DNA from: Candidatus Sulfomarinibacteraceae bacterium | GTDB taxonomy: Bacteria > Acidobacteriota > Thermoanaerobaculia > Thermoanaerobaculales > Sulfomarinibacteraceae | Length of the DNA: 64,000 nucleotides | Assembly: GCA_963796455.1 (NCBI GenBank) | Contig: CAWCLO010000001.1 | Span: 359,372-423,371, forward strand | Reading direction: 5' to 3' | Shown: positions 27,659-44,792 of the stretch, piece by piece | Position numbering within the stretch: the first letter of the stretch is position 1 | How the letters are laid out: each line of letters starts with the position of its first letter | Notes under the pieces: generated by a model | Told to the model about the DNA's origin: nothing | What the model saw: the letters and a program-made list of their open reading frames with translations, nothing else | The model's database searches: none | Made by a program: the position numbers and the translations under genes

Positions 27659-29196
27659 TCGCGATCTCCCTCGCTGGCGCCTTCCGCGACCGACGGGAGG
27701 GTCACCGTCGCTACGGTTCCACCGCCGTCGGCGTCTTCGATCGCGAGACTGCCACCGTGCATACCGACAATCAACTGCTTTGCCAGGAACAGACCCATCC
27801 CGGAACCACCCACTTTGGTCGTCACGTGCGGCGAGAAGAGCTTCTCGCGGACTTCCTCCGGAAGCCCGGGCCCATCATCTTTGACCCGGACGATGACCGC
27901 GTCGTGAGCCCGTTCGAGACCGACAACGACGGTACCGCCCGCCGGCGAAACCTCGATCGCGTTCTCCACCAGGTTGGCCAGGGCAGCACGAACGGCTCCG
28001 GCAACAACCCTGGCCCGGAATTCGCCATCGATCCCCTCGACCTTGATCTGGGCTCCCTCCTGGACCGATTCAAGTGCGACCCCGTCGACGATTTCCGCGA
28101 TATCGACTTCTTCCGCCTGCGCGGATTCCTCCGCCCCGAGGGCGAGAAACGATCGCAGCCAACGATCAATTCTGCGAATCTGAGTGCGTGAGGTGGTCAC
28201 CAGACCCCGATTGTCATCCTTGCCATCGGCGAGTTCCTCGACAGCTAAACCAAGCGTATGCAATGGATTACGAAGCGTATGAGCGAGGCCACGAGAAAGA
28301 TCTCCGAGTTGGGCGAGATGTTCCCGCTTGCGCCATTCTTCGCGTTCGCCCTCGAGCAAAGCCAGCCGGGTCGACATGGTGTTGAAGGCGTTCTGGAGGT
28401 CGCCGATTTCCCCGGTCGCCGAAACCGGCACCTGGACGCCGAGATGCCCTTCTCCCAGGGCCTCGGCACCATCTGCCAGCGAGCGCAGAGGCCGCACCAA
28501 ACGCCGCGACATCACGGCCGATGCGAAGAGCCCGACAAGCAGCAACAGTCCACCGACAGCCGCACCTTCGCGCATCGTCCCCTGCACCCTTTCCACAGTC
28601 GGTGATGTCGGAATAGGAATGCGATGAAGATCCTGGATCTCGTCTTTGACGACCAGAATCCGGTCGCTCCGTCGTTCGCCGAATTCCACATCGACCTTGA
28701 GCCGTTGCACATCCTCTGTGACCTCTCCGTCAGGTCCGAGGCGGCGGACAATCCTCTGCACGTATCGCTGATCCTCTGACTCTCCCTCGGCCCCACGCAC
28801 CAGCAACTCGATCTTTCCTTCGACCATTCCGTCACTGATCCCATCCTCGGTGAACTCCGCATCGATGTCGTGTTCATCACCAACGACAACTTGCGGAATC
28901 GGAATCTTGACGATATGGACTTCGCCTTTTGCGCCGTGCTCCACCACCGTGTCGAGATCGGTCAGTGACCCTGCATCATCCGTTTCTCCAACCCAGACAA
29001 TCCCCTCGCTATGTCCCTCGTCATGACCGAAAAAGACATTTTCAGCTGTGAGGATTTCACGCCCTACCGTTGTTGCCACGTTACCGAGTTCTTGTTCGAT
29101 CGATCGCAGCTGACGCGAGTACAGCCACCACTGCAGCCCCATCAGAGCGAGCACAAGGGCCGCGGTGCCGAGAAAAAGTCGAGTCTGAATTCGCAT
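27655..29196 (-). CDS. sensor histidine kinase with acidic periplasmic domain
   Basis: I chose start MRIQTRLFLGTAALVLALMGL. A second TM and HAMP domain. H-box LAHTLRNPLH. ATP-binding boxes NLVENAIE, DDGPGLP and GGSGMGL. Confidence 0.88.
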   Translation of the reverse strand: MRIQTRLFLGTAALVLALMGLQWWLYSRQLRSIEQELGNVATTVGREILTAENVFFGHDEGHSEGIVWVGETDDAGSLTDLDTVVEHGAKGEVHIVKIPIPQVVVGDEHDIDAEFTEDGISDGMVEGKIELLVRGAEGESEDQRYVQRIVRRLGPDGEVTEDVQRLKVDVEFGERRSDRILVVKDEIQDLHRIPIPTSPTVERVQGTMREGAAVGGLLLLVGLFASAVMSRRLVRPLRSLADGAEALGEGHLGVQVPVSATGEIGDLQNAFNTMSTRLALLEGEREEWRKREHLAQLGDLSRGLAHTLRNPLHTLGLAVEELADGKDDNRGLVTTSRTQIRRIDRWLRSFLALGAEESAQAEEVDIAEIVDGVALESVQEGAQIKVEGIDGEFRARVVAGAVRAALANLVENAIEVSPAGGTVVVGLERAHDAVIVRVKDDGPGLPEEVREKLFSPHVTTKVGGSGMGLFLAKQLIVGMHGGSLAIEDADGGGTVATVTLPSVAEGASEGDRE

Positions 29197-29471
29197 GAAT
29201 CGCTCCTTGAGGGAGTATACGCACCGTTCCGGCGTTCTCCGCACGAAGATGAAGCAAGGGTCATGCCATCTATATGAACGGGAGTGACGGAACCTGGGGG
29301 AATGGGAGGCCATGGATCAGCAACGCGGGAATGCCTGGTTCACATCGAACGTCGTCTCGTGCTGAAGATCAGAAGTCGGGAGAGAACCAACGTGTGGTCG
29401 CCCTTTCTCCCTTTCTCCCTCTCTCCCTTTCCTTCGTTCTGCGCCGGGCGCAGCAATGAGGGCGAAAACAA

Positions 29472-29789
29472 TCAGTCGTCGGAGCCTTGACCGCCCCGAT
29501 CGGTGCGGCGAATCTCCCACCGGCCCATGAATTCCACCCAGTTCAGTGGTGATCCCCCGTTCCAGCTCTCGACAAAGATCGGGCTGCTGAGGCTGGCTGT
29601 CCGCAACGGCAATTCGCTTCGCACCGCTCGGCGGTGGGTCGTGCCGGTCTTTGGCGGCGCCGAATTTCTCCTGAAATATTTCATCGTTCTCCGAAAGGCC
29701 TCCGCGACGGCTGATGGTTGGATTCGTTTCGGTATACGTTCTTCGATCACGATCTGTCGTTCTGTATACGGGCCAACCCTGATGTTCAT
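29472..29789 (-). CDS. hypothetical small protein (105 aa), weakly supported
   Basis: ATG 29789 with GGGGAGA 9 nt upstream. GC3 looks coding-like by eye. I recognise no motif. It is divergent from the MinD-like gene. Confidence 0.3.
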   Translation of the reverse strand: MNIRVGPYTERQIVIEERIPKRIQPSAVAEAFRRTMKYFRRNSAPPKTGTTHRRAVRSELPLRTASLSSPIFVESWNGGSPLNWVEFMGRWEIRRTDRGGQGSDD

Positions 29790-29924
29790 CGGGATATTCT
29801 CCCCGACGAACACATCTTTTTGACATTTCGCCGCGGTGTTAAGATGTGTCCATATGACCAGGGTCACCTTTTGCCCCGGATCTCGCCTCGTCAGACACGG
29901 CCGGACGGATCCGCACCCCCATCG

Positions 29925-30860
29925 ATGGCTATGAACAAACCCGTCACCAAGGTGCCCCGCGTCTGGGCGATCGGCGGCGGTAAGGGCGGTGTCGGGAAAT
30001 CGGTTATCGCTTCGAATTTGGCGGCAATCCTCGCTTCGAACGGTCATCGTGTGGCCCTCGTCGACGCGGATCTCGGCGGTGCAAATCTTCATACCCTGCT
30101 CGGTGTGCCCAACCCCAGGGCGAGCCTGTCAGACTTTCTCGCAAAAAAAGTCGATTCCCTGGGCAAGGTCATGACGCCGACCTCCGTCGAAAACCTGTGG
30201 CTGGTCAGCGGAGCCAAGGCATTGGTTGAAATCGCCAACCTCAACTACGGCCAGAAGGCGAAAATGCTCCGCCATATCCGGAGCCTTGCAACCGATCACG
30301 TGGTTCTCGACCTCGGCGCGGGGAGCGCCTTCAATGTGCTCGACTTTTTCCTTGCCGCCCGCAAAGGCGTTCTGGTGGTTGTTCCGGAACCGACCTCTGT
30401 CGAAAACTCGTATCACTTCCTCAAAGCGGCTTTTTTCCGCAAGCTCAAACGAGCCGAACCACGCGATCAGGTTCGCGCTGCCGTCGGCGAAGCCATGAAA
30501 CCCACCCCGCAGGGGGCAATGGTTCGGACGCCACGGGAACTGATCGCGCGGGTCTGGGATCTGGATCCAGAGGCTGGTGCAGCGATGATTGACGAAGCAA
30601 ATCAATTCCGACCGGCACTGGTTGTGAACCGGGTCAACGGTGAACGCCAGGAGCGCCTCGGCCACGACATGGTGACCGCCTGCCAGGATTATTTCGGTGT
30701 TCGGCTCCAGTTCCTCGGCGCACTCCCGATGGACCCGATCGTGGCGCGGTCGGTCATGGATCAACGCCCTGCCGCAAAATTCTATCGAGAAATTCCATTC
30801 ATCGCGGCCCTTCGTACGGTCGTCGACAACCTCACTTTTGTTCGTCCGAGGCCCTCATGA
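29925..30860 (+). CDS. MinD/ParA-family P-loop ATPase
   Basis: Deviant Walker A GGGKGGVGKS. VALVDADLGGANLH. I chose the start at MAMNKPV; the ORF-track start at 29718 is probably too early. Confidence 0.85.
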   Translation: MAMNKPVTKVPRVWAIGGGKGGVGKSVIASNLAAILASNGHRVALVDADLGGANLHTLLGVPNPRASLSDFLAKKVDSLGKVMTPTSVENLWLVSGAKALVEIANLNYGQKAKMLRHIRSLATDHVVLDLGAGSAFNVLDFFLAARKGVLVVVPEPTSVENSYHFLKAAFFRKLKRAEPRDQVRAAVGEAMKPTPQGAMVRTPRELIARVWDLDPEAGAAMIDEANQFRPALVVNRVNGERQERLGHDMVTACQDYFGVRLQFLGALPMDPIVARSVMDQRPAAKFYREIPFIAALRTVVDNLTFVRPRPS

Positions 30861-31396
30861 CAGTCCGCCAGGAGGACTGGGATGTGCTCGGCCTCGAAGC
30901 GGATGCGGATCTTGCCGCCGTCAAAAAGGCCTACCGCCACCGTCGCTCTTTATATGAGCCCTCTGCACTCGCGACATACAGTCTGCTTGACGACGAGGAA
31001 CGTACAGAGGTCGCGAACCGAATCGAGGAGGCATACCGTAGAATCATGGAATACCTTGTTCCGGAGGAAGCCGTCGCAGCGCCGCCACCTCCTCCACCGG
31101 AGAAAGTGGATATGCCTACCGGTCCCGCGCCGGATCCAGTCGAAGATCCCGGTCGACACCTGCGCCACCAGCGGCTGACCAGAGGATTGTCGATCGATCG
31201 GATCGCCACCGCCACGAAGATCAGCGCGTCGATCCTCAAACAGATCGAAAACGAGGACTTCGATGCTCTCCCGGCGGCCGTTTTTGTTCGCGGCCACATC
31301 GTTCAACTCGGCCGCGAGATCGGCATCACCGATATCGAGGGTCTGGCCAAGTTGTATATGGCGAAGATGGCCAACTCCGTCGACGACGAGGCTTGA
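30857..31396 (+). CDS. J-domain-like (no HPD) + RodZ-type helix-turn-helix protein
   Basis: ATGA overlap with the MinD-like gene. N-terminus DWDVLGLEADADLAAVKKAYRHRRSLYEPS (J-like; HPD replaced by YEP). C-terminus LTRGLSIDRIATATKISASILKQIENEDF (HTH). Confidence 0.7.
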   Translation: MTVRQEDWDVLGLEADADLAAVKKAYRHRRSLYEPSALATYSLLDDEERTEVANRIEEAYRRIMEYLVPEEAVAAPPPPPPEKVDMPTGPAPDPVEDPGRHLRHQRLTRGLSIDRIATATKISASILKQIENEDFDALPAAVFVRGHIVQLGREIGITDIEGLAKLYMAKMANSVDDEA

Positions 31397-32302: not shown

Positions 32303-33610
32303 CTACTTGATGCCGGCTGCTTCCTCGAGCATCGCGGTGGTCAGCGACTTCGGTCGTTCGATGGGATAACCGAGGGCGCGATCCCAGGTGATGTTGGTCA
32401 GCACGCCCAGCGCGCGGCCGATGCCGAAGAGGACCGTGTAGAAGTCCCACTCGGTGAGGCCGTAGTACCACTGGATGACGCCGGACTGCGCATCGACATT
32501 GGGCCACGGGTTCTTGGCCTTGCCCTGTTCTTCGAGCACACCGGGGGCGACCTGGTAGATCATGCTGATGAGCTTGAACAGCGGGTAGTCCGGAAGGTGC
32601 TTGAGGCAGAACTCACGCTGCGACTCGTAGCGCGGGTCGGTTTTGCGGAGCACCGCATGGCCGTAGCCCGGAATTACCTGACCGCTGTTGAGGGTGTCCC
32701 AGAGAGCTTTCTTGACGAGCTCTTCGGTGGGCTCGGCGCCGCCGAGGCTTTCCATGAACTTCATGGTCCAGCTCAGCACTTCCTGGTTGGCGAGGCCGTG
32801 GAGCGGGCCCGCGAGGCCATTGATGCCGGCCGACAGCGAGTAGTAGGCATCCGACAGCGCCGACGCCACCAGGTGGGTGGTGTGGGCGGAGACGTTCCCC
32901 GACTCGTGATCGGAGTGGAGGATGAAATACATCCGTGCAACATCGTCGTACGGCGCGTCGATGCCCATCTGATGGGCGAAGTTGCCGCCCATGTCCAGAT
33001 TCGGGTCCTCGGCGATCTGGTCGTCGTCTTTGTACTTGAGACGATAGATGAAGGCCGCCAGAACCGGCAGTTTGGCCATCAGGTTGCAGGAATCCTCGAA
33101 CATCGGATCCCAGTAGTCCATCTTGGACATGCCTTCGTTGTACTTCTTGACGAAGATCGATTCGCGCTGCATGGCGATGATACCGGCCGAGTACATGGTC
33201 ATCGGGTGGGTGTCTTTCGGCATCGCGCGAAGGATGTCCTTCACATAGTCGGGCAGCTGGCGCCGGGTCTTGAAATCGGCGACCACTTCTTCGGCCTGCT
33301 CGTCGGTGGGGATCTCTGAGGTCATCAGATAGTAGAAGAAGCCTTCGACGCTGGGGTACTCCTGGCCTTCAACCGCGGGCAGCGCTGCAAAGGTCTCCGG
33401 GATCGTGCGGCCCCTGAAACGAATGCCCTCGAAGGGGTCGAGATAGGACACGTCGGTCACCAGGCAACGAACTCCACGCGCGCCGCCGATCGCCTGGGCG
33501 ATGGTGACATCCCAGATCTTGGTGTCGCCATACTCTTTGAGCAGGCGCACCGTCCGCGGACGATGCTCTTCGATTTTCTTGTACAGGGTTTCCTTTAAAG
33601 TCGACATCAT
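32303..33610 (-). CDS. gltA: citrate synthase
   Basis: HSDHESGNVSAH and GYGHAVLRKTDPRY active-site motifs. Start MMSTLKE (ATG 33610 or 33607) after GGGAGG. Confidence 0.9.
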   Translation of the reverse strand: MMSTLKETLYKKIEEHRPRTVRLLKEYGDTKIWDVTIAQAIGGARGVRCLVTDVSYLDPFEGIRFRGRTIPETFAALPAVEGQEYPSVEGFFYYLMTSEIPTDEQAEEVVADFKTRRQLPDYVKDILRAMPKDTHPMTMYSAGIIAMQRESIFVKKYNEGMSKMDYWDPMFEDSCNLMAKLPVLAAFIYRLKYKDDDQIAEDPNLDMGGNFAHQMGIDAPYDDVARMYFILHSDHESGNVSAHTTHLVASALSDAYYSLSAGINGLAGPLHGLANQEVLSWTMKFMESLGGAEPTEELVKKALWDTLNSGQVIPGYGHAVLRKTDPRYESQREFCLKHLPDYPLFKLISMIYQVAPGVLEEQGKAKNPWPNVDAQSGVIQWYYGLTEWDFYTVLFGIGRALGVLTNITWDRALGYPIERPKSLTTAMLEEAAGIK

Positions 33611-33845
33611 GCCTCCCGTTTTTTTCCAGCCGGGAGAGCTGCCGCGCATTGATCTCGCCGCCTCTCGACCCGGTCATTTCACATCGCACGAGGGTTCATT
33701 CTGTCTGGTACGAAAAATCCCGAAAAGGTTTCCCGTGGACAAGAGTATAGAGCTTGTGAAGAAAAGTGACAAGCTATATTTCAGTTGATCAGACGCTCAC
33801 TTTTCGGCCAAAGCCGATCAATGAATGAACGCTCATTCATTGAAA

Positions 33846-33930
33846 GGCTTGGGGCTTGGGGCTTGGGGCTTGAGGGGGTTGGGGCTTGGGGCTTTGGGGC
33901 TTGGGGCTTGGGGCTTGGGGTTGGGGCTTC
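33846..33930. repeat. tandem 8-mer array (GGGGCTTG)x~10
   Basis: Read directly. When translated it gives the spurious GLGLGAWGL N-terminal extension of ORF 33825. Confidence 0.9.
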
Positions 33931-33960
33931 AAAGGATCGATCTCGCTTCTGAGCATGTCA

Positions 33961-34007
33961 AGCCTCAGCCTCAGGTCCCAGGTCCCAGGTCACCGGTCTC
34001 AGGTCTC
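33961..34007. repeat. tandem 6-7-mer array (AGCCTC / AGGTCYC)
   Basis: agcctcagcctcaggtcccaggtcccaggtcaccggtctcaggtctc. Confidence 0.85.
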
Positions 34008-34088
34008 AAGCCCCCGTATCAGCTACAATGTCGACGTACGCAGTCGAATATCGGAATCGTCGATCGACCCGAGGAGGATACTCCGCCA

Positions 34089-36866
34089 GTGAATGTTGTC
34101 TGGCAGCTCCGCGGAACGTCAGATTCGGGCAGCGTCGAGCTGCAATTCGGTGCCGGTGTTCATGTTCTCGGCTCGGCGACCGACTGCGACCTCATCATCG
34201 CCGACCGAACCATTTCTCGTCGCCATGCCAGAATCGTCGCCGGCGAGAGCGGTGTTTCGATCGAAGATCTTGCTTCAACCAATGGCACGACGGTCGACGG
34301 AAAGACCGTTGATTCGCCGACCGACATCAATAAGGACTCAGAGATCAAACTCGGTCACGTGTTTCTTCACATTTCGGTCGTCGCCGAACACGATGGTGAA
34401 GAACAGCTCGAAGAATCCGATATCAGCGGTGGGCAGTCCTTGTTGCTCGGGCCCGCGACTGTCGGCTTTCTCCGCGATGCCGGCCAGGAGGTCTCGTTTT
34501 CTTCGGGTGAGGTTGTGGTCCGCCGCGGCGAACGGCAGGAGTTTTTCTTTGTCGTCATCGAAGGCGAGGTCGAGCTTTTTCTGAGCGAGGATGAGGATCG
34601 TGGCCGCCCCCTGGCCCGACTGGGTGAGGGAGGGATCTTCGGCGCCGAGTCGGTTCTCGGCAAAGGCGGCGCGGCCACCGGTGCCGTAGCCGTGACCGAC
34701 GTCCGGTTGCTTCGCTATCCCGCCCACGCCCTACCGACAGCCCTTCAGGAGTCGGCTTCGCTGCGCAGCAAACTTCTCGGAGGGTTTGCCCGGAACCTCC
34801 AGAAGACCACCTCTGATGCGCTCGACCTCATGCGCGGCAACGAAGTGATGGCCAGACTGGTTCAGGGCGACAACGATCCTGATGCCCTGATCGCGGTCTC
34901 GCCGAGGATGAAGGCCATCCGCCGTAAGATCGACGCGCTCTCCAAGTCCAGAGACGCGGTCCTGATCGCCGGCGAAGACGGAACGGGAAAGACTCTCGCA
35001 GCGCGGTTGATTCACGATGCCTCGGAGCGTTCTTCCGGGCCGCTGATTGCGGTCAATTGCCGCGATCTGCGATCCGGCCACGCCGCAGAGCTCATCCTCG
35101 GCGAAGATCTCGGCGGGCGCCTGCCAACCGGACGGCGTGGCAGCGGCGGAATCCATCTGGCACACAACGGAACCCTCGTCCTGCGCGGCGCCGATGAGCT
35201 CGAGGCAGCCGTGCAACAGATGCTCGCCGCCTATATTGCGACGGCGAAGGGCAAGCCACCGGGGTCCTACCCCGACACCCGATTCGTCCTCACGACCCGA
35301 TCTGCCTCGAGCGCCGACGGCGGGCCGACCGCCGCATTGGCCGAGACCGTCGACGAGATCATCGAGATCCCGCCCCTGGCAAAACGGCCCAAAGACATCA
35401 TTCCCCTGGCCGAGGAGTTCCTCTCCCGCACTGGGCCTCCGGCGCCGACTATTACCGAGGACGCACAACACGCGTTGCTGTCGCTGCGCTATCAGCGCCG
35501 AAATGTGGCCGAGCTACGTGAAGTTCTGGGGCTCGCGTCGCGGCTCGCCGATGGCCCGGAAATCCGTGCCGAACATATTTTCGGTGGAGTCGGCGACGAC
35601 GACACGGCTCCGGGTCTCTCCATCACCGACACGCCGCTGATTCGTCGACTTCTCCGGCCCTTGGGCATTCCACTGGCAAGGGCTCTGACTTTCGCCGGTT
35701 TTGCGGCAGTCATCGTCCTCTGTCTCGGATTCGCCTCGACAACCGCCGGTCGGGTGGCCAACACCGCCATCTGGTCGGTCTGGGAACCCGCGGTCTTCGG
35801 TTTGTTCTTTCTCATCGGCCCGGTGTGGTGCACGATCTGCCCGTTGTCCACCGCCGCGCGTCTCTCGAAGAAGCTCGGGTGGCCGGAGCAATCGCCGCCG
35901 CCCTGGATCATTCGCCATGGGCCGTGGCTGACGATCGTCGGTTTCGCACTCATCGTTTGGGTCGAACGGTTTTTCGAGTCAACCATGAATCCCGTTGCCT
36001 CCGGGTTTCTGCTCGCTTCCCTGGTCGCCGCCGCGGTGATCTTCGGAGTCCTTTACAAGCGAGAGGTGTGGTGTCGCTATCTGTGCCCGTTGGGCCGTCT
36101 GGCGACCGTGCTCGCTCCCGCCTCCCCTCTTCAGATCAAGGCAAAACCAACCGTCTGCGCTTCGACCTGCACCACCCACGAGTGCTACAAGGGAACCATC
36201 AAGATCCCCGGTTGCACGGTCTTCCACCACCCTCTCGAGGGCAAACAGGCCTACCGATGCAAGCTCTGTGGTGATTGCCTGAACAACTGCACGCACCATT
36301 CCGCACAGCTTCAGGTGAGAGCGCCGCTGATGTCGGTCTGGCGCCTCGATTCGAGTGCCCAGGATCTCGCCCTCTTCGGGCTTGCCATCTCGATTCTCGC
36401 GTTGGCTCTTGTTGCATCCCGAAGCTTCGAAGCCCTCGCCACCCCTCTCGCTTTTACCGTCCTTTGCGTCCTCAGCCTGGTGGCCGGAATCGCTCTCCAC
36501 CACGTCGTCATGGCGATCGCACACACCGATCGCCGGATCGCCATCATGGTGCGTCTGGCCGTGGCCCTCATGATCCTCGGCTGGAGCACATTGATGGTCA
36601 GTCAACTCGCGAATATCGTGGTGCTCGACAAAGCCGAGATCGTGTTGCCGGCGGTCGACTGGCTACCCCTTTGGATTCCACTGCGTTTCAGCTTGCTCAA
36701 AGGTCTGCAGATAACTTTCGTCCTCTTCGGGCTGACCCTCGCCACCATCGCGCTGAGCCACATTCGTTTCGAGGGCACCTCGATCTGGACCCGCATCGGT
36801 CGTTTTCTGACGCCCCTGGTTCTCATCGGATATGCCGCGTCAGTTGTGCTTTTGATCCTCTTCTGA
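34089..36866 (+). CDS. multidomain membrane protein: FHA + cyclic-nucleotide-binding + degenerate sigma54-type AAA+ + polytopic 4Fe-4S-binding (Fer4_5/NapH-like) domain
   Basis: GTG 34089 after GAGGAGGA. FHA: LIIADRTISRRHARIV...STNGTTVDGK. cNMP: FFFVVIEGEVELF...GIFGAESVL. AAA+: VLIAGEDGTGKTLAARLIH...LIAVNC, but no GAFTGA and no DE Walker B. TM region with CTICPLS, WCRYLCPLGRL and CKLCGDCLNNC. Confidence 0.8.
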   Translation: MNVVWQLRGTSDSGSVELQFGAGVHVLGSATDCDLIIADRTISRRHARIVAGESGVSIEDLASTNGTTVDGKTVDSPTDINKDSEIKLGHVFLHISVVAEHDGEEQLEESDISGGQSLLLGPATVGFLRDAGQEVSFSSGEVVVRRGERQEFFFVVIEGEVELFLSEDEDRGRPLARLGEGGIFGAESVLGKGGAATGAVAVTDVRLLRYPAHALPTALQESASLRSKLLGGFARNLQKTTSDALDLMRGNEVMARLVQGDNDPDALIAVSPRMKAIRRKIDALSKSRDAVLIAGEDGTGKTLAARLIHDASERSSGPLIAVNCRDLRSGHAAELILGEDLGGRLPTGRRGSGGIHLAHNGTLVLRGADELEAAVQQMLAAYIATAKGKPPGSYPDTRFVLTTRSASSADGGPTAALAETVDEIIEIPPLAKRPKDIIPLAEEFLSRTGPPAPTITEDAQHALLSLRYQRRNVAELREVLGLASRLADGPEIRAEHIFGGVGDDDTAPGLSITDTPLIRRLLRPLGIPLARALTFAGFAAVIVLCLGFASTTAGRVANTAIWSVWEPAVFGLFFLIGPVWCTICPLSTAARLSKKLGWPEQSPPPWIIRHGPWLTIVGFALIVWVERFFESTMNPVASGFLLASLVAAAVIFGVLYKREVWCRYLCPLGRLATVLAPASPLQIKAKPTVCASTCTTHECYKGTIKIPGCTVFHHPLEGKQAYRCKLCGDCLNNCTHHSAQLQVRAPLMSVWRLDSSAQDLALFGLAISILALALVASRSFEALATPLAFTVLCVLSLVAGIALHHVVMAIAHTDRRIAIMVRLAVALMILGWSTLMVSQLANIVVLDKAEIVLPAVDWLPLWIPLRFSLLKGLQITFVLFGLTLATIALSHIRFEGTSIWTRIGRFLTPLVLIGYAASVVLLILF

Positions 36867-36974: not shown

Positions 36975-37037
36975 CTGCGCTCATCGCACTATGACGCAAC
37001 AAAAATGATGCAACCACAGGGTCTTGGAGGCCGCACC

Positions 37038-40000
37038 ATGAGACGCATTCTTAGTTTCATTTTCCTTCTCACGCTCATTTCCGCACCTGCCATCGTCGGC
37101 GCTCAGCAGGCTGGCGACAACATTAATGTCCTACCGTTGGTTCCGAACGTCGATTCGTCCGACCCAGGCTATGATCCCGATTGGTTTCTGAAGGGTGACG
37201 GCTACCTACAGCGTCAGCTGGAGCCGACAATCGCCGCATCGACCCGCAACCCGGACCACCTGCTCGCGTTCTTCAACGATTACAGGGCGGTGGATGTGGG
37301 TGACGACATCGGACTCGGCGAAGGCGAAATCGGATCGGCCGCCCTCAAGACCCTCAACCTCATGCTGGCTTCGGTGCCATGGCTGCAAATTCCAGACCTT
37401 GGTATCACGATGATTCGCCCGCAGCCGATGGCGGCGTCCGAAGCATGGGTGGGTATGAGTCGATCTTATGATGGCGGCCTGACCTGGAGTGGCGGCTTCT
37501 TGCCCGGCGCACCCTTCGACGGCTCCCCCGCATCGCTCGATTCTCCCGTCTATGGCCTCGAGGCGGCCACCGATCCGGTGACCGTCTGCGGTCCGTGCGG
37601 CCAATTCTATACTGTCTTCGTCGCCTTCACTCGCGGCGGCCAGAGCAAGCTCGCGGTCGCGCGTTATGAGGACCTCAACAATGACCCCGGCGGCGACACC
37701 CTGGTGTACAAGGGCACGACCGTTGTCGACTCTGGAGCCAACGCGAATTTCGGGCATTTCCTCGACAAGCCCCATATCGCCATTGATGTCTGGCGCAATG
37801 AATCATCAAAAGCGGGAATTGAAAAGAAGAAAAAGCCGAAACCCTCGGAAGACAACGACGATCCCTGCGCGCATCGCGTTTACGTGAGCTACAGCACCTT
37901 CACCGGAAAACCGAAACCCAACAAATTCCAGAGCAAACTCTACGTTGCGACGTCGGAGGATGGTGGCGAGACTTTCAACAGGACAAAAATCAACAAGAAC
38001 TTCGGTCAGAACCAGGGATCGGCCCTCGCTGTCGATCCACGCGAAGGAACTCCGACGACAACCGGGGGCGGAACCCTCTATGCGTTCTGGCGTCATTTCA
38101 ACGGTCCTGACAGCATCGTCATGACCAAATCGCTCGATTTCGGCGGTTCGTGGAGCAGACCGGAGCAGATCATCGGCAGCACGCCGATGGCGCCATTCGA
38201 TCAGCCGACGATTTCGACCCAGGCCGTCTACGATTTCGGTTTGTTCGACCCCATCACCGGTTTGCCCGAAGTTGCTTTTCGTTCGAACGGATTCCCCACC
38301 GCCACCGTCGCGACCGACCCCCAAGGTGATGCAACCGTATTTGTAGGTTGGCAGGAGCGGGTTGGCGGTGACGGCTACCCGCTCGAAAACGGAACGCCCC
38401 GGATCGTGCTGATGCGCTCCGACGACGACGGCGATTCGTGGACGGACATCGAAGGCAACCCCGGTCAGCGGAAAGCCGTCGATATCGGCTGGCGCGACCT
38501 CGAGAGTGATCCAAGTGCTCCCGAGCCAGGATTTGGGACTGTGCCTCTCGAGCGCCCCTCGGGACCCCAGATCCAACCCGCCCTCTCATTTGCCGGCGGG
38601 CGATTGATGATGGTGTACTCAGAGTCCCGCGGTCGGATCGCCAACTACGGCAACCCTGATCTTGAAGAAATCCTGACGTCGCAGTTCAACCCGGACGCAG
38701 ACATCGATTCGCAAACCGGTTTCATCAGCGGCTACGATCGACTGATGGATCATCGCGCCGCGCTGCTCGACCCCGCGACCGGTGAACTGTTGTCGACGGT
38801 GCAGGTTTCGCGCTATCCCTTGAGGGCAGGTTCAGACCTTGCCGACGGCGAGGACTATGAGGACGTCGCGCCGATCAACCCGCCGTGCTCGCCGGACTAT
38901 GACGCATACTTCAACGCGGGTGAACTCAACCCCTGCGTGCGCCAACTCAACCGCGTCAACGCAGTGACCTCGGCCGCCGGAACCTCTCCATTTGTCGGGG
39001 ACTACCCGGGGATCCATCCCTTCGTCCAGTTCGTGACCGACTCCGAAGGCAACTGGCGGTGGGCGACCGATCCCGATGACCTCACAACCCGCGGTTTCCA
39101 CACCATCTGGGCCGACAATCGCCACCTGATTCCGCCGCAAAACCCGTCACCTGGAAGTCCATGGGTCGAATGGCAGGACTATCCCAACTATGACGCACCC
39201 GGGTCAGGCGATCTTTCCTGTGCCAACCCGGGATCGCGCAACACCGATGTGTTGACCTCGAGGGTTGATGCCGAGCTGGTCATCAATTCGCCGACGACCT
39301 TCAAGGCGATCGGCGCCACCGGGGCTAGCTTTCCGTTTTCTATCGGCAACAAGACGGGCGAAACCAGAACCTACCAGATCAGCATCGAACCGGATGATGG
39401 CAATGCCTCATTCCTGTCGCGCTCGGTGGTGACCACGGCCTCGGTCGAGATCTTTCCCTTCTCGAGCACCTCGCAGGTGGTCTATGTTTCGGGGCCGACG
39501 ACCGACCCCATCAAGGTCACTGTCCAGGAGACCGGCGGTTGCGGCAGCGATTGCCAGAGCGGCACCATCGTCTTCAACGCCCACCAGAGCATGGCCTCGG
39601 AACAACTCGCTTCGGAGGAGTTCTTCAACCCGACGGTCACGCCCGACGCGTTCGTCATCAATCAGAATCTGGAAAACGCTTTCGTGATCAACCAGGGTGC
39701 TGAAAACGCATTCGTCATCAATCCAACAGTTGACAACGCCTTCGTCATCAACGGCGGCACGGAGAATGCGTTCGTTATCAATGCATTTGTCATCAACGCA
39801 TTCGTCATCAATGCATTTGTCATCAACAGCGGCCTCCCGGCAAAGGCAGGGGAAGAGCCCGAGTACTACGATATCCACAACATCATCGACACAACCTGGA
39901 CGGTGACTCCAGGTGAGAGCACCGATGCCTCGAGCTTTCTGCCAATCATCAATATCGACAAGGCGGAGCAGTTCCTCGACAAGTACGTCTTCCAACTCAT

Positions 40001-41444
40001 CGTCCACAAGGGCGCGCTCTACGGTTCCCCGAGTTTGGAGGGTTGCGACTCAACCAATGTGAACCAGCCGCAGATCCTCTCGACCTTTGCGCAGGGCCCG
40101 GGCACCAACCCTGCCGACGCCTTTGTCATCAACCCGGCGCCAAAAAATGCCTTCGTCATCAACCAGGGATTTCCCGGCGATGCCTTTGTCATCAACTCGA
40201 CATTTACCGTCGCACCATCCGACGACGGCCCGGACAACTCAAAGAACGGCTCCCTGAGCAACGACGGCACGCTCAAAGCTCCGCGCGCGCCGGACACCGT
40301 CAACGTCACCCTGCGGGCCTATCAGATCGTGCCTGACGAAGAGTTGGGTGAGTTCCGCTATAACCCGTTCCCCGCGGACGACCCGAACAATCCGAACCCA
40401 GGCACGGCCGGCGATCGCGCATCCTTCGCCGCATCCTCACACAACTGCGACACCCTGGATCCCTTGTCAGAGTGTTTCGAGTTCAACGCACCGGACCTCG
40501 TGCCCATCGACGTTGATCCAACCGAAATCCTACCGACTCTGGTCGGCGAAAGCTTCGACTTTCCGTCCTGGACCCTGCTCAACCAGGGAACGACGGATGG
40601 CAACGCCGAGAACGACGATCTTCGTCATGGCTTCTATCTCTGTCCGCGCTGGGTTGTGGCAGATGCTCCGGAGGATCTGACGCTCGACCTTTCGCCGTGC
40701 ACACAGTTCATTGACGAAGGAGAGATCCTGTTCACCACCGACAACTCCCTCCCGCCTGCGGGTGAAGATGATTTCGATGCAACCACGTTGAACATCCCGG
40801 AAGGAACCCTGCCGGGTCTCTACGACGTGGTGCTCTACGTAGACGATCTCTTCCAGGTCTCAGAGTTCATCGAAGTCAACAATTACGCATCGGTACCCAT
40901 CATCGTCATCGACGAGTTGCTCGAGAACGGCGGTTTCGAGACGCCGGACGTGGCCGCCGGAGCCTGGGCCCTCTTCGAAAACGGGACGGATGGGCTCGAT
41001 TGGAGCTTCGAGTGGGTGAATTGCGGTGGCTGCGAAACCGATCCACTGCTCGAGATTCAGAGCAGCGGCGTGGTGATCACCACACCGGACGGCGGTCAGG
41101 TCGCCGAACTCGACTCCGACTTCGGCGGTGCGGAACCGGGCAGCCAGACGAGTCTGCGCCTGTACCGCGATTTCGACACCTGCGAGGGAGTCACCTACAC
41201 ATTCGACTATTCGTGGGCAAAACGCACCGGCTCGGATTTGATGACCGTCTCATGGGACGGATTTGTCTTCGCGACACACGGTGCAGGCGCTCCGACCCTG
41301 CAATGGAATGTGGAGAGCTGGGAACTCGATGGCGACGGATCGACCATTCGTCTCGAGTTCGTTGAGACCGGACCGGCCGATTCGTTGGGCATGCTGCTCG
41401 ATGCCGTGAGCCTGATCGGACCGCTTTGCCCGAACGTTGAATAA
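37038..41444 (+). CDS. giant secreted protein: BNR/Asp-box (sialidase-like propeller) + AFVIN repeat region + C-terminal DUF642/CBM-like domain
   Basis: Signal peptide MRRILSFIFLLTLISAPAIVGA after GGAGG. Asp-boxes SYDGGLTWS, SEDGGETFN, SLDFGGSWS and SDDDGDSWT. 11 AFVIN motifs. C-terminal LLENGGFETP... domain. Confidence 0.8.
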   Translation: MRRILSFIFLLTLISAPAIVGAQQAGDNINVLPLVPNVDSSDPGYDPDWFLKGDGYLQRQLEPTIAASTRNPDHLLAFFNDYRAVDVGDDIGLGEGEIGSAALKTLNLMLASVPWLQIPDLGITMIRPQPMAASEAWVGMSRSYDGGLTWSGGFLPGAPFDGSPASLDSPVYGLEAATDPVTVCGPCGQFYTVFVAFTRGGQSKLAVARYEDLNNDPGGDTLVYKGTTVVDSGANANFGHFLDKPHIAIDVWRNESSKAGIEKKKKPKPSEDNDDPCAHRVYVSYSTFTGKPKPNKFQSKLYVATSEDGGETFNRTKINKNFGQNQGSALAVDPREGTPTTTGGGTLYAFWRHFNGPDSIVMTKSLDFGGSWSRPEQIIGSTPMAPFDQPTISTQAVYDFGLFDPITGLPEVAFRSNGFPTATVATDPQGDATVFVGWQERVGGDGYPLENGTPRIVLMRSDDDGDSWTDIEGNPGQRKAVDIGWRDLESDPSAPEPGFGTVPLERPSGPQIQPALSFAGGRLMMVYSESRGRIANYGNPDLEEILTSQFNPDADIDSQTGFISGYDRLMDHRAALLDPATGELLSTVQVSRYPLRAGSDLADGEDYEDVAPINPPCSPDYDAYFNAGELNPCVRQLNRVNAVTSAAGTSPFVGDYPGIHPFVQFVTDSEGNWRWATDPDDLTTRGFHTIWADNRHLIPPQNPSPGSPWVEWQDYPNYDAPGSGDLSCANPGSRNTDVLTSRVDAELVINSPTTFKAIGATGASFPFSIGNKTGETRTYQISIEPDDGNASFLSRSVVTTASVEIFPFSSTSQVVYVSGPTTDPIKVTVQETGGCGSDCQSGTIVFNAHQSMASEQLASEEFFNPTVTPDAFVINQNLENAFVINQGAENAFVINPTVDNAFVINGGTENAFVINAFVINAFVINAFVINSGLPAKAGEEPEYYDIHNIIDTTWTVTPGESTDASSFLPIINIDKAEQFLDKYVFQLIVHKGALYGSPSLEGCDSTNVNQPQILSTFAQGPGTNPADAFVINPAPKNAFVINQGFPGDAFVINSTFTVAPSDDGPDNSKNGSLSNDGTLKAPRAPDTVNVTLRAYQIVPDEELGEFRYNPFPADDPNNPNPGTAGDRASFAASSHNCDTLDPLSECFEFNAPDLVPIDVDPTEILPTLVGESFDFPSWTLLNQGTTDGNAENDDLRHGFYLCPRWVVADAPEDLTLDLSPCTQFIDEGEILFTTDNSLPPAGEDDFDATTLNIPEGTLPGLYDVVLYVDDLFQVSEFIEVNNYASVPIIVIDELLENGGFETPDVAAGAWALFENGTDGLDWSFEWVNCGGCETDPLLEIQSSGVVITTPDGGQVAELDSDFGGAEPGSQTSLRLYRDFDTCEGVTYTFDYSWAKRTGSDLMTVSWDGFVFATHGAGAPTLQWNVESWELDGDGSTIRLEFVETGPADSLGMLLDAVSLIGPLCPNVE
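39645..39827 (+). repeat. in-frame AFVIN repeat cluster (8 units; the last 4 are a 4 x 15-bp tandem array with only synonymous differences)
   Basis: DAFVINQNLENAFVINQGAENAFVINPTVDNAFVINGGTENAFVINAFVINAFVINAFVIN. A second cluster of 3 units lies at 40116-40196. Confidence 0.95.
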
Positions 41445-41502: not shown

Positions 41503-44500
41503 ATTTATCTGGCCCGTCCGCCAGGCGATCGGTGGCGTCGGCCGCGAATGCGTCCTGAGGCTCTGATTCACCGCGCAGCGCAACGTACTCGGAGTACAGC
41601 GTGCGGGCAGCCTCGGCGTTGCCAAGCTTCTCGTGGCTTCGGCCGAGCCAGTACAGGGCCGGTGGGAAATACCGCAGGGTGGCACTGTCCACAAGGAAAA
41701 CGTCGGTGATCTCGCCCTTGGCACGCACCGCGTGATCGAACTCGTCGAGCGCTTCGGGGTACTGCTCGGCCTCGAAGAAGACCCGCCCCATCAGGTAGTG
41801 TCCGAACCACATATCGAATTCCTCGCGGGCAAGTCGGAACTCGCGCATGGCCGTGCCCAACTGGTCGTTCAAGAGCGCTTTCTCACCGCGGATCAAGGCC
41901 GCCAAGGCCGTGGTCTGGCTCTTGAGCCTGTTTTCCAGGTCGAGAGCGATTTCGTCCGCCCTCTCCTCGTCGCCGGCAGCTAAAAAGACCCGGGCCGCGA
42001 GATAGTGGATGCTCTCGTGCTGGCTCAGAGTCGACCGCTTCGGCGGCCGACGCCACCGCGGCGGCCTTGTCACCCATCGCCATCTGCGATTCGGCGTGGG
42101 CAATCAGCATGTTGGCCTTTTCAAAGGGGTTGTCCGATGACTGTATCGCCGGATAAAGCACTGTAACGGCTTCTGCATGGCGACCCAGGTACATCTCGAG
42201 ATCGCCCACTGCGATAGGCACCAGCGAGGAACCCATGCCTCCCGATGCTTCGAGACGGGCATATGCAGCCCTGGCCGCCTCCGCGTCGCCTGCGGCGGCA
42301 GCCGCGCGACCGAGGGTGAACAGCGCGTAGCCGAACTGCTCATTCTGTTCGAAGACCTTTTCCGACTCACCCATCGCGGTTTCGAAATCACCCGCGTAGG
42401 TCGCGTAAATCGCGTAGTTGATCCTCTTGATCAGATTTCCAGGATCAAGCTCCACCGATCGCCGTCCCGCATCGACGGCGTCGTCAAACCGGCGAACCAT
42501 GTGGTAGGCATAGCCCAGGTTGGAGTAGGCACCGCCATCAGCCGGATACTGGTCGACCAGGGTTTGGTAGTTCTCGATTGCCTTTTCATAGTTCCGGGAG
42601 ACCAGCAGATAGTAGCCACCGAGAGTCCGGTAGCGTTCGCGTTCGGACATCCGGTCCAGACGCTCGAAAGCCAGCTGATAGGCCTCTTCGGCCTCCGCCT
42701 CGCGGCGCAGATTGCCGTAGGTCACTCCCATCCCGGCAAAGGCCCTGCCGAACTCGGGATCGGCAGCAACCGCCTCCTGGTAGGCACCGAGGGCAGCTTC
42801 GAACTCACCCTGCACAGCCAGATCCTGGCCGCGCGCGTAGGCCTGCATGGCCTCGACCGATCCCGCAGTGAAGGTCTCGGTTGCCGCCAGGCGATCGCTC
42901 TTTGGAGTCGTGTCACCGAGGTCCCCGCGCAGTTCGGCGGCGATTTTGCCAACCGCGGCCAGCACCGCGTCTTTGTCGTCTGCGGAGGCCCGGACCGTCG
43001 CCAGCGGCTTCCCCTCGCCCGGTTCGAGACCGGGATCGAGTGCTCTCACCGACAACTCATAACCTTCCCCATCACTCTCGATCGCACCGGCCAGGATCAC
43101 GCTCACCCCTTCGCGACGAGAAACCAGCCGGGCCATGGTTTCGTCGAGGGAGCTGCCCGGTTGGATCTGTTCCGCGATCTGGCGGGCATTGGCGGGCTGA
43201 ATCGCACTGATAAAGGCCGCACCCTCCATCGCGATGGTGAGCGCCTGCTCGAGGGCGCCATCAAAGGAGGCGTCGCCGGTCTGATTGCTGAAGTCGGCCA
43301 CCAGCACCGAGAAGGGGTCCGGTTCGACCGCCGGCCCGCGCAGGCTGGCGAGCCACCACGTACCTGCAAGCAGGACAGCAACCATTGCCGCTGCCGAGAT
43401 CACCCCCTTACGGGTGAGACGCCTCGTGACCGGAAGCAGATTGCCCTCTTCATCGAGACGATCGAGGTCGGCACGAAGTTCGGCGGTGGTGAGGTAGCGC
43501 TCGTTCGGATCGGGGTCCAAACAGCGCGAGATCATCCGGTCGATCGGCTCGGGAATCGTCGGATCGACCCCACGAATCGGATCCGGGGCTGTCTCGACCC
43601 GGCCGCGAAATTCCGCAAAGGCGCTTTCGGCCCGCTCGATCCGGCGCCGGCCCACCAGCATGTCGCGAAAGATCAAACCCAGCGCATAGATATCGGCCCG
43701 TTGATCGACTCCCTGGCCGGCAAATTGTTCCGGCGCCATGTATTGAAGGGTGCCGACCACGGCACCTGCCTGGGTCTCTTCGGTCACTCCTGCCCGGTGA
43801 TCCGCCTTTGCACCGACAAGCTCACCAGCCACCTCGCTGCCGGCCGGGGTCGCCGAGCGGGCGATCCCGAAATCCATGATGTAGCTCTCACCCGTGGATG
43901 GTTCGACCATGATGTTGGCGGGTTTGAGATCGCGGTGCACCACATCCGCCTCATGGGCCGCGGACAAGCCGGCAACCACCGGGCGAATGATTTCAAGGGC
44001 ATCGGAAACTGAGACCGTTCCCTCCCGCTTGAGGATGTGCGACAAATCCTCGCCCTCGATAAAGGTCATGGTGATGTATTTGACGCCCTCGATCTCACCG
44101 AGATCGTGAATGCGAACGACGTTTTTGTGGGTGACCTTTCGTGCCAGCAGCAGTTCTCGTTTGAAGCGACGGTCGAGCTGTTCAGCGAGCGCCGGGTCGG
44201 CCGCGACCTCGGGTCGGATCACCTTGAGAGCGACCGGAATCTCGAGTTCCTTGTCCCATGCCTTGTACACCGCGCCCATACCGCCGAAACCGAGCAGAGT
44301 GTCGATCTGGTATCGGCTGCCGAAGCTCTCTCCGATCTGGAGCGGTCCGCCCATGTCTTTGGGAACCGAAACTGTGACGCCGCCTCCGCCGCGCGACAGG
44401 GCCTCGGCCTCGGCAACGCCCATGGTGTGATCAAACTCCGGTTCCTCGGACAGATCGATGGCGGTCTGATCGTCTCCCCCACCGCTGATGATCGCGGTGT

Positions 44501-44792
44501 GGTCGCCGCTTGCCGCCAAGCCGTCCACCGGCGTGTGCTCGTCATCCGATGCGGAGTCGAGCGTGATCCGGCTCGATGTCCTCTCACCGATCTTGGAACC
44601 ACAGTGCACACACCGGTCACGATGAGGGGCGTTTTCTTTACCGCAGGATGGACAGTTCAGCAATTGAATACCACCAGTGGATCTCTCCCGACATTCTCCA
44701 CTTCGACAGCCCTCCGAGGCGCCGTATCTACATGAGACAACCACGCACTGCCTGTGATGCTTCCTCGATGAGGATGATTTCTTTCGCACCAC
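41501..44792 (-). pseudogene. Ser/Thr protein kinase with zinc ribbon, TM, large extracytoplasmic region and TPR repeats; apparent +1 frameshift near 42025-42040
   Basis: CPSCG...CVHCG. Kinase motifs GFGGMGAVYKA, VALKV, HRDLKPANIM and DFGIAR. The TPR region continues from ORF 41883-44792 (...AAEAVD) into ORF 41501-42103 (LSQHESIHYLAARVFLAAGDEE...). The N-terminal start is uncertain. This could be an assembly error. Confidence 0.8.

Follow-up and report, generated by a model that had tools for sequence, protein, structure and literature searches.

A 64,000-nt stretch of contig CAWCLO010000001.1 from a Candidatus Sulfomarinibacteraceae bacterium (hereafter the window, meaning the whole stretch) carries at 34089-36866 (+) a gene for a 925-amino-acid (aa) protein that joins an FHA domain, a cyclic-nucleotide-binding (CNB) fold, an AAA+ core of the kind found in bacterial enhancer-binding proteins (EBPs) and a nine-helix membrane domain with iron-sulphur (Fe-S) motifs. 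The AAA+ core has kept its P-loop and lost its other catalytic and sigma-54-contacting residues, the membrane domain is a distant relative of the NapH/MauN superfamily, and both are conserved across a large family of proteins. We propose that the protein is a signal-regulated membrane redox module with an EBP-derived regulatory cassette, including an FHA input from a neighbouring Ser/Thr kinase, and not a transcription factor; we put this reading at slightly under even odds (about 0.45). A sequence-only reading of the window had described a single four-part open reading frame (ORF) here, and this was borne out by Pfam, by the NCBI/ENA record and by homologues: FHA, cNMP_binding, Sigma54_activat and Fer4_5 were all matched in Pfam, and every string that it quoted (GEDGTGKT, LGGRLPTG, TLVLRGADEL, CTICPLS, WCRYLCPLGRL and CKLCGDCLNNC) occurs in the translation.

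A degenerate sigma-54-type AAA+ core

34890-35579 (+): AAA+ core (aa 268-430) and lid (aa 432-497), catalytically degenerate; from Pfam, alignment to NtrC1 (3m0e) and a motif table
34971-34994 (+): Walker A P-loop GEDGTGKT, aa 295-302, conserved (canonical EBP GESGTGKE)
35100-35144 (+): former L1/GAFTGA loop, aa 338-352, GEDLGGRLPTGRRGS; variable, without GAFTGA; from the NtrC1 alignment
35169-35192 (+): Walker B position GTLVLRGA, aa 361-368; from the alignments

Pfam assigned aa 268-393 to Sigma54_activat (E 1e-18; the match spans no more than positions 2-127 of the 168 in the profile) and, weakly, aa 432-497 to AAA_lid_14 (24.6 bits vs a cutoff of 27). The AAA+ fold is confident in the AlphaFold2 (AF2) model, and the best PDB relative is NtrC1 (3m0e, E 4e-20), with VpsR and FleQ also among the PDB matches. 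The core was aligned with NtrC1, with a canonical NtrC-type activator encoded in the same window (26228-27658, -) and with 59 relatives. In Walker A, G295, G298 and G300 are invariant and T299 and K301 are conserved in at least 90%. The segment aligned with the L1 loop reads GEDLGGRLP; it varies across the family and has low pLDDT at aa 341-350. At Walker B, where the canonical EBP sequence is GGTLFLDEI, the protein has NGTLVLRGA: Arg366, the same in all 60 sequences, stands in place of the Asp, and Gly in place of the Glu. Both arginine fingers are lost (canonical FREDLYYRL vs PTAALAETV here), as is the sensor II Arg (NVREL vs NVAEL), whereas the canonical activator from the window keeps GAFTGA, the DE pair, the arginine fingers and the sensor II Arg. 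Pfam found neither HTH_8 nor any other DNA-binding domain, and the place of such a domain at the C-terminus is taken by the nine-helix membrane domain. The losses of GAFTGA, Walker B DE and helix-turn-helix (HTH) domain that had been noticed earlier are confirmed and extend to the arginine fingers and the sensor II Arg, so that the P-loop alone remains.

The motifs that define bacterial EBPs are GAFTGA, the Walker B DE and the arginine fingers (PMC7175178), and by these criteria the losses mean that the core cannot hydrolyse ATP in the manner of an EBP or engage sigma-54. A P-loop combined with Arg or Lys at the Mg-coordinating Asp position suggests nucleotide binding without hydrolysis. The same pattern extends through the wider family: among 80 representatives Walker A is kept, Walker B mostly follows h-h-h-h-[R/K]-[H/N/G], and the arginine fingers and GAFTGA are gone. 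A few distant members retain GAFTGA-like vestiges (GHEKGAIPSA, GYERGAFPGA and GYEKGAFAEA), and we therefore conclude that the family descends from true EBPs. A conventional sigma-54 transcription activator, as in the automatic annotation, would account for the Sigma54_activat match at E 1e-18 and for the source name 'sigma 54-interacting transcriptional regulator'; such a protein would nevertheless need GAFTGA, the Walker B acidic pair, the arginine fingers, the sensor II Arg and a DNA-binding domain, none of which is present, its C-terminus would not be a nine-helix membrane domain, and the NCBIfam equivalog scores for EBPs all stay below 75 bits against cutoffs above 440. We regard this explanation as very improbable and reject it as contradicted by the sequence, in agreement with the earlier statement that this is no conventional enhancer-binding protein.

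A nine-helix membrane module with Fe-S motifs

35664-36323 (+): NapH/MauN-like core, aa 526-745, comprising transmembrane helices TM1-TM4, two Cx2-3CP motifs and a predicted cytoplasmic two-cluster [4Fe-4S] region; from NCBIfam, Fer4_5, hydropathy and AF2
35829-35843 (+): first Cys motif C581-T-I-C584-P (CX2CP), at the predicted cytoplasmic end of TM2; invariant
36072-36089 (+): second Cys motif C662-R-Y-L-C666-P (CX3CP), at the predicted cytoplasmic end of TM4; invariant, in the best Fer4_5 stretch
36156-36290 (+): eight putative Fe-S cysteines, C690-x3-C694-x4-C699-x9-C709 and C724-x2-C727-x2-C730-x3-C734; invariant columns
36351-36863 (+): five extra transmembrane helices, aa 755-925, without a family match; from hydropathy and AF2 (block-mean pLDDT ~75-97)

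Hydropathy and the AF2 model of the membrane part (pLDDT 83.8, pTM 0.85) agree on nine transmembrane helices in aa 501-925. The NCBIfam profile for NapH matched aa 642-744 (E 2.3e-8, profile positions 177-279 of 286) and that for NapH/MauN aa 579-740 (E 5.5e-8, positions 80-252 of 255), which identifies the membrane part as NapH-type in the sense of a distant superfamily relative, as had been suggested; a match to CcoG was weak (E 0.013, far below the cutoff). Fer4_5 was found in two stretches, at 22.3 bits against a cutoff of 22, rising to 23.7 bits when the membrane part was scanned alone. A PDB sequence search with the membrane domain returned nothing below E 1.8. The module shared by NapH, NosR and RdhC consists of four membrane segments with two CX3CP motifs, followed by two [4Fe-4S] motifs, the Cys motifs being cytoplasmic (PMC5928378), and NapH-like modules serve in modular fashion to pass electrons to extracytosolic redox partners or to take them up from these (PMC8238504). 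The sequence-only reading had described a membrane domain of ~400 aa with Fer4_5/NapH-type motifs; of its nine helices, the first four, with the two Cys motifs and the putative two-cluster region, are a distant relative of NapH/MauN.

All twelve cysteines are invariant, together with H697, H713-H714-P715, W565-E566-P567 and E626, as well as W832 in the extra helices; the cysteines stay so even at 21-37% identity. The second cluster motif (C724-C734) is a canonical CxxCxxCxxxC and the first (C690-C709) is atypical; the Cys-rich segment as a whole (aa 690-734) has low AF2 confidence, as expected where the clusters are not modelled. The extra helices of aa 755-925 are conserved across the wider family, P786 also being invariant and G831 and Q839 nearly so. 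Since the N-terminal domains are cytoplasmic and the helices number nine, the Cys motifs and the Cys-rich segment are predicted to face the cytoplasm and the C-terminus to lie outside. Neither the window nor the related loci contain a gene for a quinol dehydrogenase partner (NapG, NosZ or a reductase).

Sensor domains

34098-34382 (+): FHA domain, aa 4-98; from Pfam, PDB relatives, column counts and AF2
34449-34751 (+): CNB-fold domain, aa 121-221; from Pfam, alignment to protein kinase G (PKG) and the protein kinase A regulatory subunit (PKA-R), and column counts
34755-34862 (+): long linker helix between the CNB domain and the AAA+ core, aa 223-258; from the full-length AF2 model

The FHA domain was matched by Pfam at aa 26-89 (E 1.3e-15) and modelled by AF2 as a beta-sandwich (block-mean pLDDT ~80-95). 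Its closest PDB relative is CT664 of Chlamydia (3gqs, E 8e-10), the second best is the FHA domain of Rv1747, and GarA is also among them. Column counts show conservation of G28, of S43-R44-x-H46 and of S63-T64-N65-G66-T67; since SRxH and STNGT are kept, reading of phosphothreonine by this domain is plausible, not assured.

The cyclic-nucleotide-binding fold that had been named is present (Pfam cNMP_binding, aa 135-221, E 9.2e-15), and the role that had been attached to it probably does not hold. Where the canonical phosphate-binding cassette has F-G-E...R-[ST]-A, the cassette here reads FGAESVLGKGGAATGA. In the alignment to PKG and PKA-R the Glu of FGE corresponds to Ala186, and the Arg that contacts the cyclic phosphate to Ala195, which is Ala in 55 of 60 members and never Arg. 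The wider family follows the same trend, with the cassette Arg absent in 51 of 52 members, PRSA kept in one of the 52 and a consensus of FGEMSLLTGEP[V/A/T]SADVVA. Canonical binding of cAMP or cGMP is unlikely from these residues, and because the phosphate-binding Arg is missing, gating by a cyclic nucleotide monophosphate (cNMP), as claimed by the sequence-only reading, is doubtful. The full-length AF2 model (mean pLDDT 80, pTM 0.52) is confident for single domains; within the linker region, aa 241-261 are of low confidence.

Gene start and integrity

34071-34091 (+): Shine-Dalgarno sequence GAGGAGGA and GTG start codon; read from the sequence, in agreement with the NCBI/ENA start and with homologue N-termini

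The open frame extends over 33825-36866 (+), and translation from the GTG at 34089 yields the 925-aa product, identical to NCBI/ENA record P0001 (100% identity, 100% coverage). The Shine-Dalgarno sequence GAGGAGGA lies ~11 nt 5' of this GTG, and in the alignment homologues share the N-terminal start residue of the 925-aa call. The 264 nt of open frame 5' of the GTG are non-coding and cross a simple heptamer repeat. This tandem array, GGCTTGG x11.7 at 33846-33929, is intergenic; on the + strand it reads (GGGGCTT)n, a textbook G-quadruplex-forming tract and the sole one in the window, and it is followed by a second array, CTCAGGT x5.6 at 33970-34008. Neither array is conserved 5' of homologues in other loci. 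Long antisense ORFs overlap the gene (34731-36605, -; 160-250 aa, and up to 1400 aa in some loci), which is the usual artefact of GC-rich DNA, and a set of neighbourhood genes grouped as cluster 3 was set aside as a probable artefact of the same kind, its largest member overlapping the gene on the opposite strand.

That the ORF might be a chimera from mis-assembly or frameshift, or a decaying pseudogene, is an explanation for which no support was found, the sole oddity being the 264 nt open through the simple-repeat tract. The protein search yielded 179 homologues; among the 120 that were listed, most span the full length (900-950 aa), are 55-70% identical and have the same domain set; they come from independent samples, projects and assemblers, and include contigs longer than 1 Mb. 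A collection of species-representative genomes contributed 63 loci, nearly all in MAGs (metagenome-assembled genomes) of Thermoanaerobaculia, Ca. Sulfomarinibacteraceae or Acidobacteriota. Composition is uniform along the gene, with no break inside it, and the twelve invariant cysteines and the invariant R366 amount to conservation on the scale of a catalytic site. With over 100 homologues of full length in MAGs of Thermoanaerobaculia, a chimera is ruled out; we consider an artefact of either kind a negligible prospect and reject it as refuted by the homologue set. The mis-assembly or frameshift that had been named earlier as a ground for refutation does not apply.

A wider family with exchangeable sensors

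A profile of the membrane module, searched against 1.84 billion cluster representatives, retrieved 1636 proteins at E <= 1e-3, of which 356 at E <= 1e-30, so that the membrane-module family comprises at least 1636 cluster representatives (50% identity). In nearly all of the best 150 of the 1636 the module is C-terminal in a protein of 800-1200 aa. Pfam scans of ten members revealed the arrangements FHA-GAF-AAA+-, CNB-AAA+-, CNB-GAF-GAF-AAA+- and HisKA-receiver-AAA+-membrane, as well as a plain AAA+-membrane form. Pfam matches were also counted in 56 diverse members, whose identity to the first aligned sequence is 21-37%, with the following distribution.

Sigma54_activat: 56/56
AAA_lid_14: 54/56
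Fer4_5: 47/56
cNMP_binding: 43/56
GAF: 6/56
FHA: 4/56
Response_reg: 3/56
HisKA: 2/56

Judged by these domain compositions, the four-part protein is a lineage-specific branch of a family whose core is CNB, a degenerate AAA+ and the nine-helix Fe-S module, preceded by exchangeable domains of the FHA, GAF or receiver kind. The idea of a one-off four-part oddity has to be given up in favour of one branch of a large family with variable N-terminal domains. Members occur in Acidobacteriota, Chloroflexota, Omnitrophota, Poribacteria and Firestonebacteria, the named members outside Acidobacteriota all being MAGs. Every NCBI name seen for members that bear the AAA+ domain was 'sigma 54-interacting transcriptional regulator'; on the evidence of the motifs, the databases mislabel the family as transcription regulators. 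We found no description of the fusion or of the family-wide conversion of the AAA+ core in the literature searched (full text), which agrees with the earlier remark that the architecture had not been characterised. It is an uncharacterised family of architectures built of known kinds of parts, not a new principle.

Three other groups of relatives deserve mention. The same genomes contain an FHA-less paralogue (CNB, degenerate AAA+ and nine-helix module; ~820 aa, ~40% identity), found at loci L037-L044, L050, L053 and others. In a Chloroflexota MAG (L069, 1-4467) a family member has a HisKA-receiver N-terminus and neither CNB nor FHA. Upstream of it, and reading the same way, come a gene with two receiver-domain matches and a single-receiver gene, and these neighbours suggest a phosphorelay that would feed a degenerate AAA+/Fe-S output. 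In a 680-aa protein of Ca. Magnetominusculus (Nitrospirota; P0248) the nine-helix module stands alone, with a C-terminal fusion to two CxxCH cytochrome c domains of the SoxA/TsdA type. As cytochromes c must be periplasmic, this fusion supports the predicted topology of the module and a role for it in electron transfer, and the protein is a possible transmembrane electron conduit.

The signal could conceivably run in the opposite direction, the Fe-S module sensing the quinone pool, oxygen or a metal and the cytoplasmic domains forming the output of a redox-sensing scaffold or anti-activator, with the degenerate AAA+ and FHA domains tethering or sequestering partners (a true sigma-54 activator, phosphoproteins) at the membrane and controlling transcription indirectly. 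Pfam shows no enzymatic or DNA-binding output domain in the protein, so that an output through protein-protein contacts is conceivable, and degenerate AAA+ subunits could join or poison the rings of true EBPs, a kind of protein that the organism does have (26228-27658). NosR and NirI were first proposed as transcriptional regulators. The same was first proposed for RdhC, a member of the NapH family (PMC5928378). Signalling genes often neighbour the distant members, as do the receiver domains in L069; no conserved partner EBP, however, stands beside them, and mixed rings with active EBPs are less credible given that the arginine fingers are lost. Variable sensors in front of a constant AAA+-membrane unit fit a fixed output better than several inputs without an output, and the fusion to periplasmic cytochromes c points to electron transfer. 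We consider this scaffold unlikely, though still a serious alternative to a redox module that is itself the regulated output. No respiratory or metabolic partner is shared beside the distant members, whose neighbours are of signalling type or unrelated.

Neighbouring genes

37005-41444 (+): exported protein, 1479 aa, with signal peptide, Asp-box-like repeats (SxDxGxTW) and many short AFVIN repeats; homologues at the same position in 23 loci
41883-44792 (-): transmembrane Ser/Thr kinase with Pkinase (Pfam E 2e-42) and TPR domains; 5.0 kb downstream, convergent

The Ser/Thr kinase gene that had been placed 5 kb downstream is confirmed at 41883-44792 (-), as the only kinase domain in the window. 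In 17 of the 20 FHA-type loci with full flanks there is a Pkinase domain no more than 10 kb away, without exception on the opposite strand, which makes the kinase a conserved neighbour; 15 of the 17 loci share the block of target gene, exported protein(s) and kinase, with full-length kinase orthologues that are 55-76% identical. In the divergent homologues L003 (51% identity) and L034 (48%) a non-orthologous kinase (34-38% identity) is directly adjacent and divergent, and the other neighbours differ. The protein begins with a zinc ribbon (CPSCG...CVHCG) and a tail of ~100 aa; its kinase domain (aa 161-436) is followed by one hydrophobic segment near aa 478-498 and then by an outer TPR region. 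Its true start is probably ~44 codons inside the listed ORF. The region past the hydrophobic segment resembles TIGR04510, 'peptide modification system cyclase' (E 1e-39, below the cutoff). Among orthologues the N-terminal tail contains one to four HTxx[LIVMFD] repeats, the motif being conserved and its copy number variable, against an estimated chance expectation of ~0.04 matches per tail. Bacterial FHA domains usually prefer Thr with a hydrophobic residue at +3, and because of this preference we regard the repeats as putative docking sites for the FHA domain.

The exported protein between the two genes has no Pfam or PDB relative, apart from a weak 'choice-of-anchor C' tail, and its homologues in the 23 loci are sometimes split into several genes. 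A promoter-like site precedes its gene, and co-transcription with the target gene is not established. Its position raises a further explanation, namely that the target protein is a regulated factor for assembly or maturation, which reduces Cu(II), another metal or a cofactor in the manner of CcoG, or maintains an extracytoplasmic enzyme in the manner of NosR, with the conserved exported protein as client and the kinase reporting the state of the client. CcoG is a cupric reductase, and the membrane module has a weak match to it (E 0.013). The order of target, large exported protein and kinase is conserved in ~15 loci, the kinase has an outer TPR/sensor region, and NosR helps to activate a periplasmic enzyme and to supply it with electrons (PMC5928378). 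The proposed client, however, has no recognisable metal or cofactor domain, it is absent beside L003 and L034 and beside all distant family members, and its gene has the promoter-like site in front of it. We judge a maturation factor quite improbable.

Upstream of the target gene, the window contains at 26228-29313 (-) a canonical receiver-type sigma-54 activator (GAFTGA, DE, arginine fingers and HTH_8 intact) with its HAMP histidine kinase and, besides, a ParA-like gene, an HTH_25 gene (29718-31396) and a citrate synthase gene (32303-33649, -). This block is also found upstream of the target in L001.

Proposed mode of regulation

Our preferred explanation is that the protein is an integral membrane NapH-type Fe-S redox module, with nine helices, two Cx2-3CP motifs and probably two [4Fe-4S] clusters on the cytoplasmic face, whose electron-transfer activity, oligomeric state or partner binding would be under the control of a regulatory cassette that derives from a bacterial EBP. 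The layout of an EBP, with N-terminal sensors, linker helix and AAA+ core, is kept, and by way of the linker helix the sensors may govern how the AAA+ core assembles. Without ATP hydrolysis or contact with sigma-54, the core would most likely act as a nucleotide-binding or oligomerisation switch that relays the state of the sensors to the membrane module, control of the NapH-type module having presumably taken the place of sigma-54 remodelling and DNA binding as output. One input would be phosphorylation: the syntenic transmembrane TPR Ser/Thr kinase would generate phosphothreonines, and the FHA domain would probably read them. The other would act through the CNB fold, with a ligand that is probably neither cAMP nor cGMP. 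We infer the direction of control, from sensors to redox module, from the logic of the domains, and variable N-terminal domains in front of a constant AAA+-membrane unit form the usual pattern of variable inputs and fixed output. The sequence-only reading had proposed a membrane redox module gated by Ser/Thr phosphorylation and cNMP; the NapH-type module and the link to a kinase have stood, and the cNMP gating, with the cassette Arg lost, probably has not.

Several observations weigh against this explanation. The NapH and NapH/MauN matches are far below the family cutoffs (NF007013, 33.5 vs 234 bits; TIGR02163, 32.6 vs 213 bits), a CX2CP replaces one CX3CP and one cluster motif is atypical, and a Foldseek comparison of the AF2 membrane model with the PDB gave no match at E <= 0.001, the best TM-score being 0.26. 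The FHA domain, which had been called a phosphothreonine reader, has the fold, SRxH and STNGT and lacks the Arg of the canonical 'GR', this position being Ser29 in 44 of 52 members and Arg in 0 of 52; CT664, its closest PDB relative, likewise has G-S in place of 'GR'. The full-length AF2 model gives no confident inter-domain geometry at its pTM of 0.52. No extracytoplasmic redox partner was identified, the 1479-aa exported protein having no recognisable cofactor domain. As to the kinase, the block of target, exported protein and kinase may be a single inherited arrangement; FHA-less paralogues, in an otherwise different neighbourhood, have a Ser/Thr kinase 1-9 kb away in six of nine loci with full flanks; and no kinase was seen beside FHA-GAF members of other phyla on their short contigs (6.7-17 kb). 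Kinases near FHA-less paralogues, and none by the FHA-GAF members, mean that the kinase goes with the family and that synteny does not prove a pairing of FHA domain and kinase, and the notion that kinase proximity is specific to FHA-bearing members was rejected on the six of nine FHA-less loci. Finally, Fe-S content, nucleotide binding and FHA-kinase pairing are what we infer from sequence and models.

Significance

The explanation can be extended from this protein to the family, which would then be a widespread and so far unrecognised class of signal-gated membrane electron-transfer proteins in which an EBP cassette has become a pseudo-ATPase switch that directly controls a NapH-like Fe-S conduit for quinol or electrons; this generalisation is possible, and we hold it tentatively, as less likely than not. 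If it is true, signalling in bacteria would act directly on electron flow in the membrane, through input modules that are exchanged as they are in transcription activators, and signals from kinases, small ligands or two-component systems could adjust a respiratory or redox valve after translation, with no need of transcription. The family would also be a clear natural case of the conversion of an AAA+ motor into a non-catalytic switch, for which the consistent change of the Walker B Asp to Arg or Lys provides a structural hypothesis. Among the Acidobacteriota of sediments, for example in the Sulfomarinibacteraceae, this suggests that a receptor kinase is coupled to redox metabolism by a regulatory link not studied so far. 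For annotation, the consequence is that the family bears the names of sigma-54 regulators, yet no examined member has the required residues or a DNA-binding domain.

Comparison with known systems

With NapH, MauN, NosR, RdhC (PceC) and CcoG (COG0348, Fer4_5) the protein has in common a four-helix unit, two Cys-Pro motifs on the predicted cytoplasmic side and a subsequent putative two-cluster [4Fe-4S] region; the profile matches to this group cover aa 579-744, with scores far below the cutoffs. It differs from the group in its first motif, CX2CP instead of CX3CP, in the atypical first cluster (C-x3-C-x4-C-x9-C), in five extra C-terminal helices and ~500 residues of cytoplasmic signalling domains in front, and in the lack of an extracytoplasmic FMN-binding domain and of an operon with NapG, NosZ or a reductase. 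With EBPs such as NtrC1, PspF, NorR and the FHA-type activators of Myxococcus it shares one or more sensors, a linker helix and a clade-6 AAA+ core with lid, and the N-terminal inputs of EBPs (FHA, GAF, receiver and CNB) are of the same domain kinds as those of the present family. Unlike EBPs, it is membrane-anchored and has lost GAFTGA, the Walker B DE, the arginine fingers and the C-terminal HTH.

EBP-type AAA+ domains reused without GAFTGA or contact with sigma-54 are known from VpsR, the NtrC proteins of Caulobacter and Rhodobacter, TyrR and PexR, as in the protein described here. Regulators of the VpsR type keep their DNA-binding domain, act on promoters and in several cases bind or hydrolyse ATP, whereas the present protein has a putative membrane Fe-S output instead. 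Rv1747 of Mycobacterium tuberculosis, which is regulated by its neighbouring kinase PknF, likewise has FHA domains on a membrane protein and a Ser/Thr kinase gene nearby; it is, however, an ABC exporter, and its FHA domains have the canonical 'GR'.

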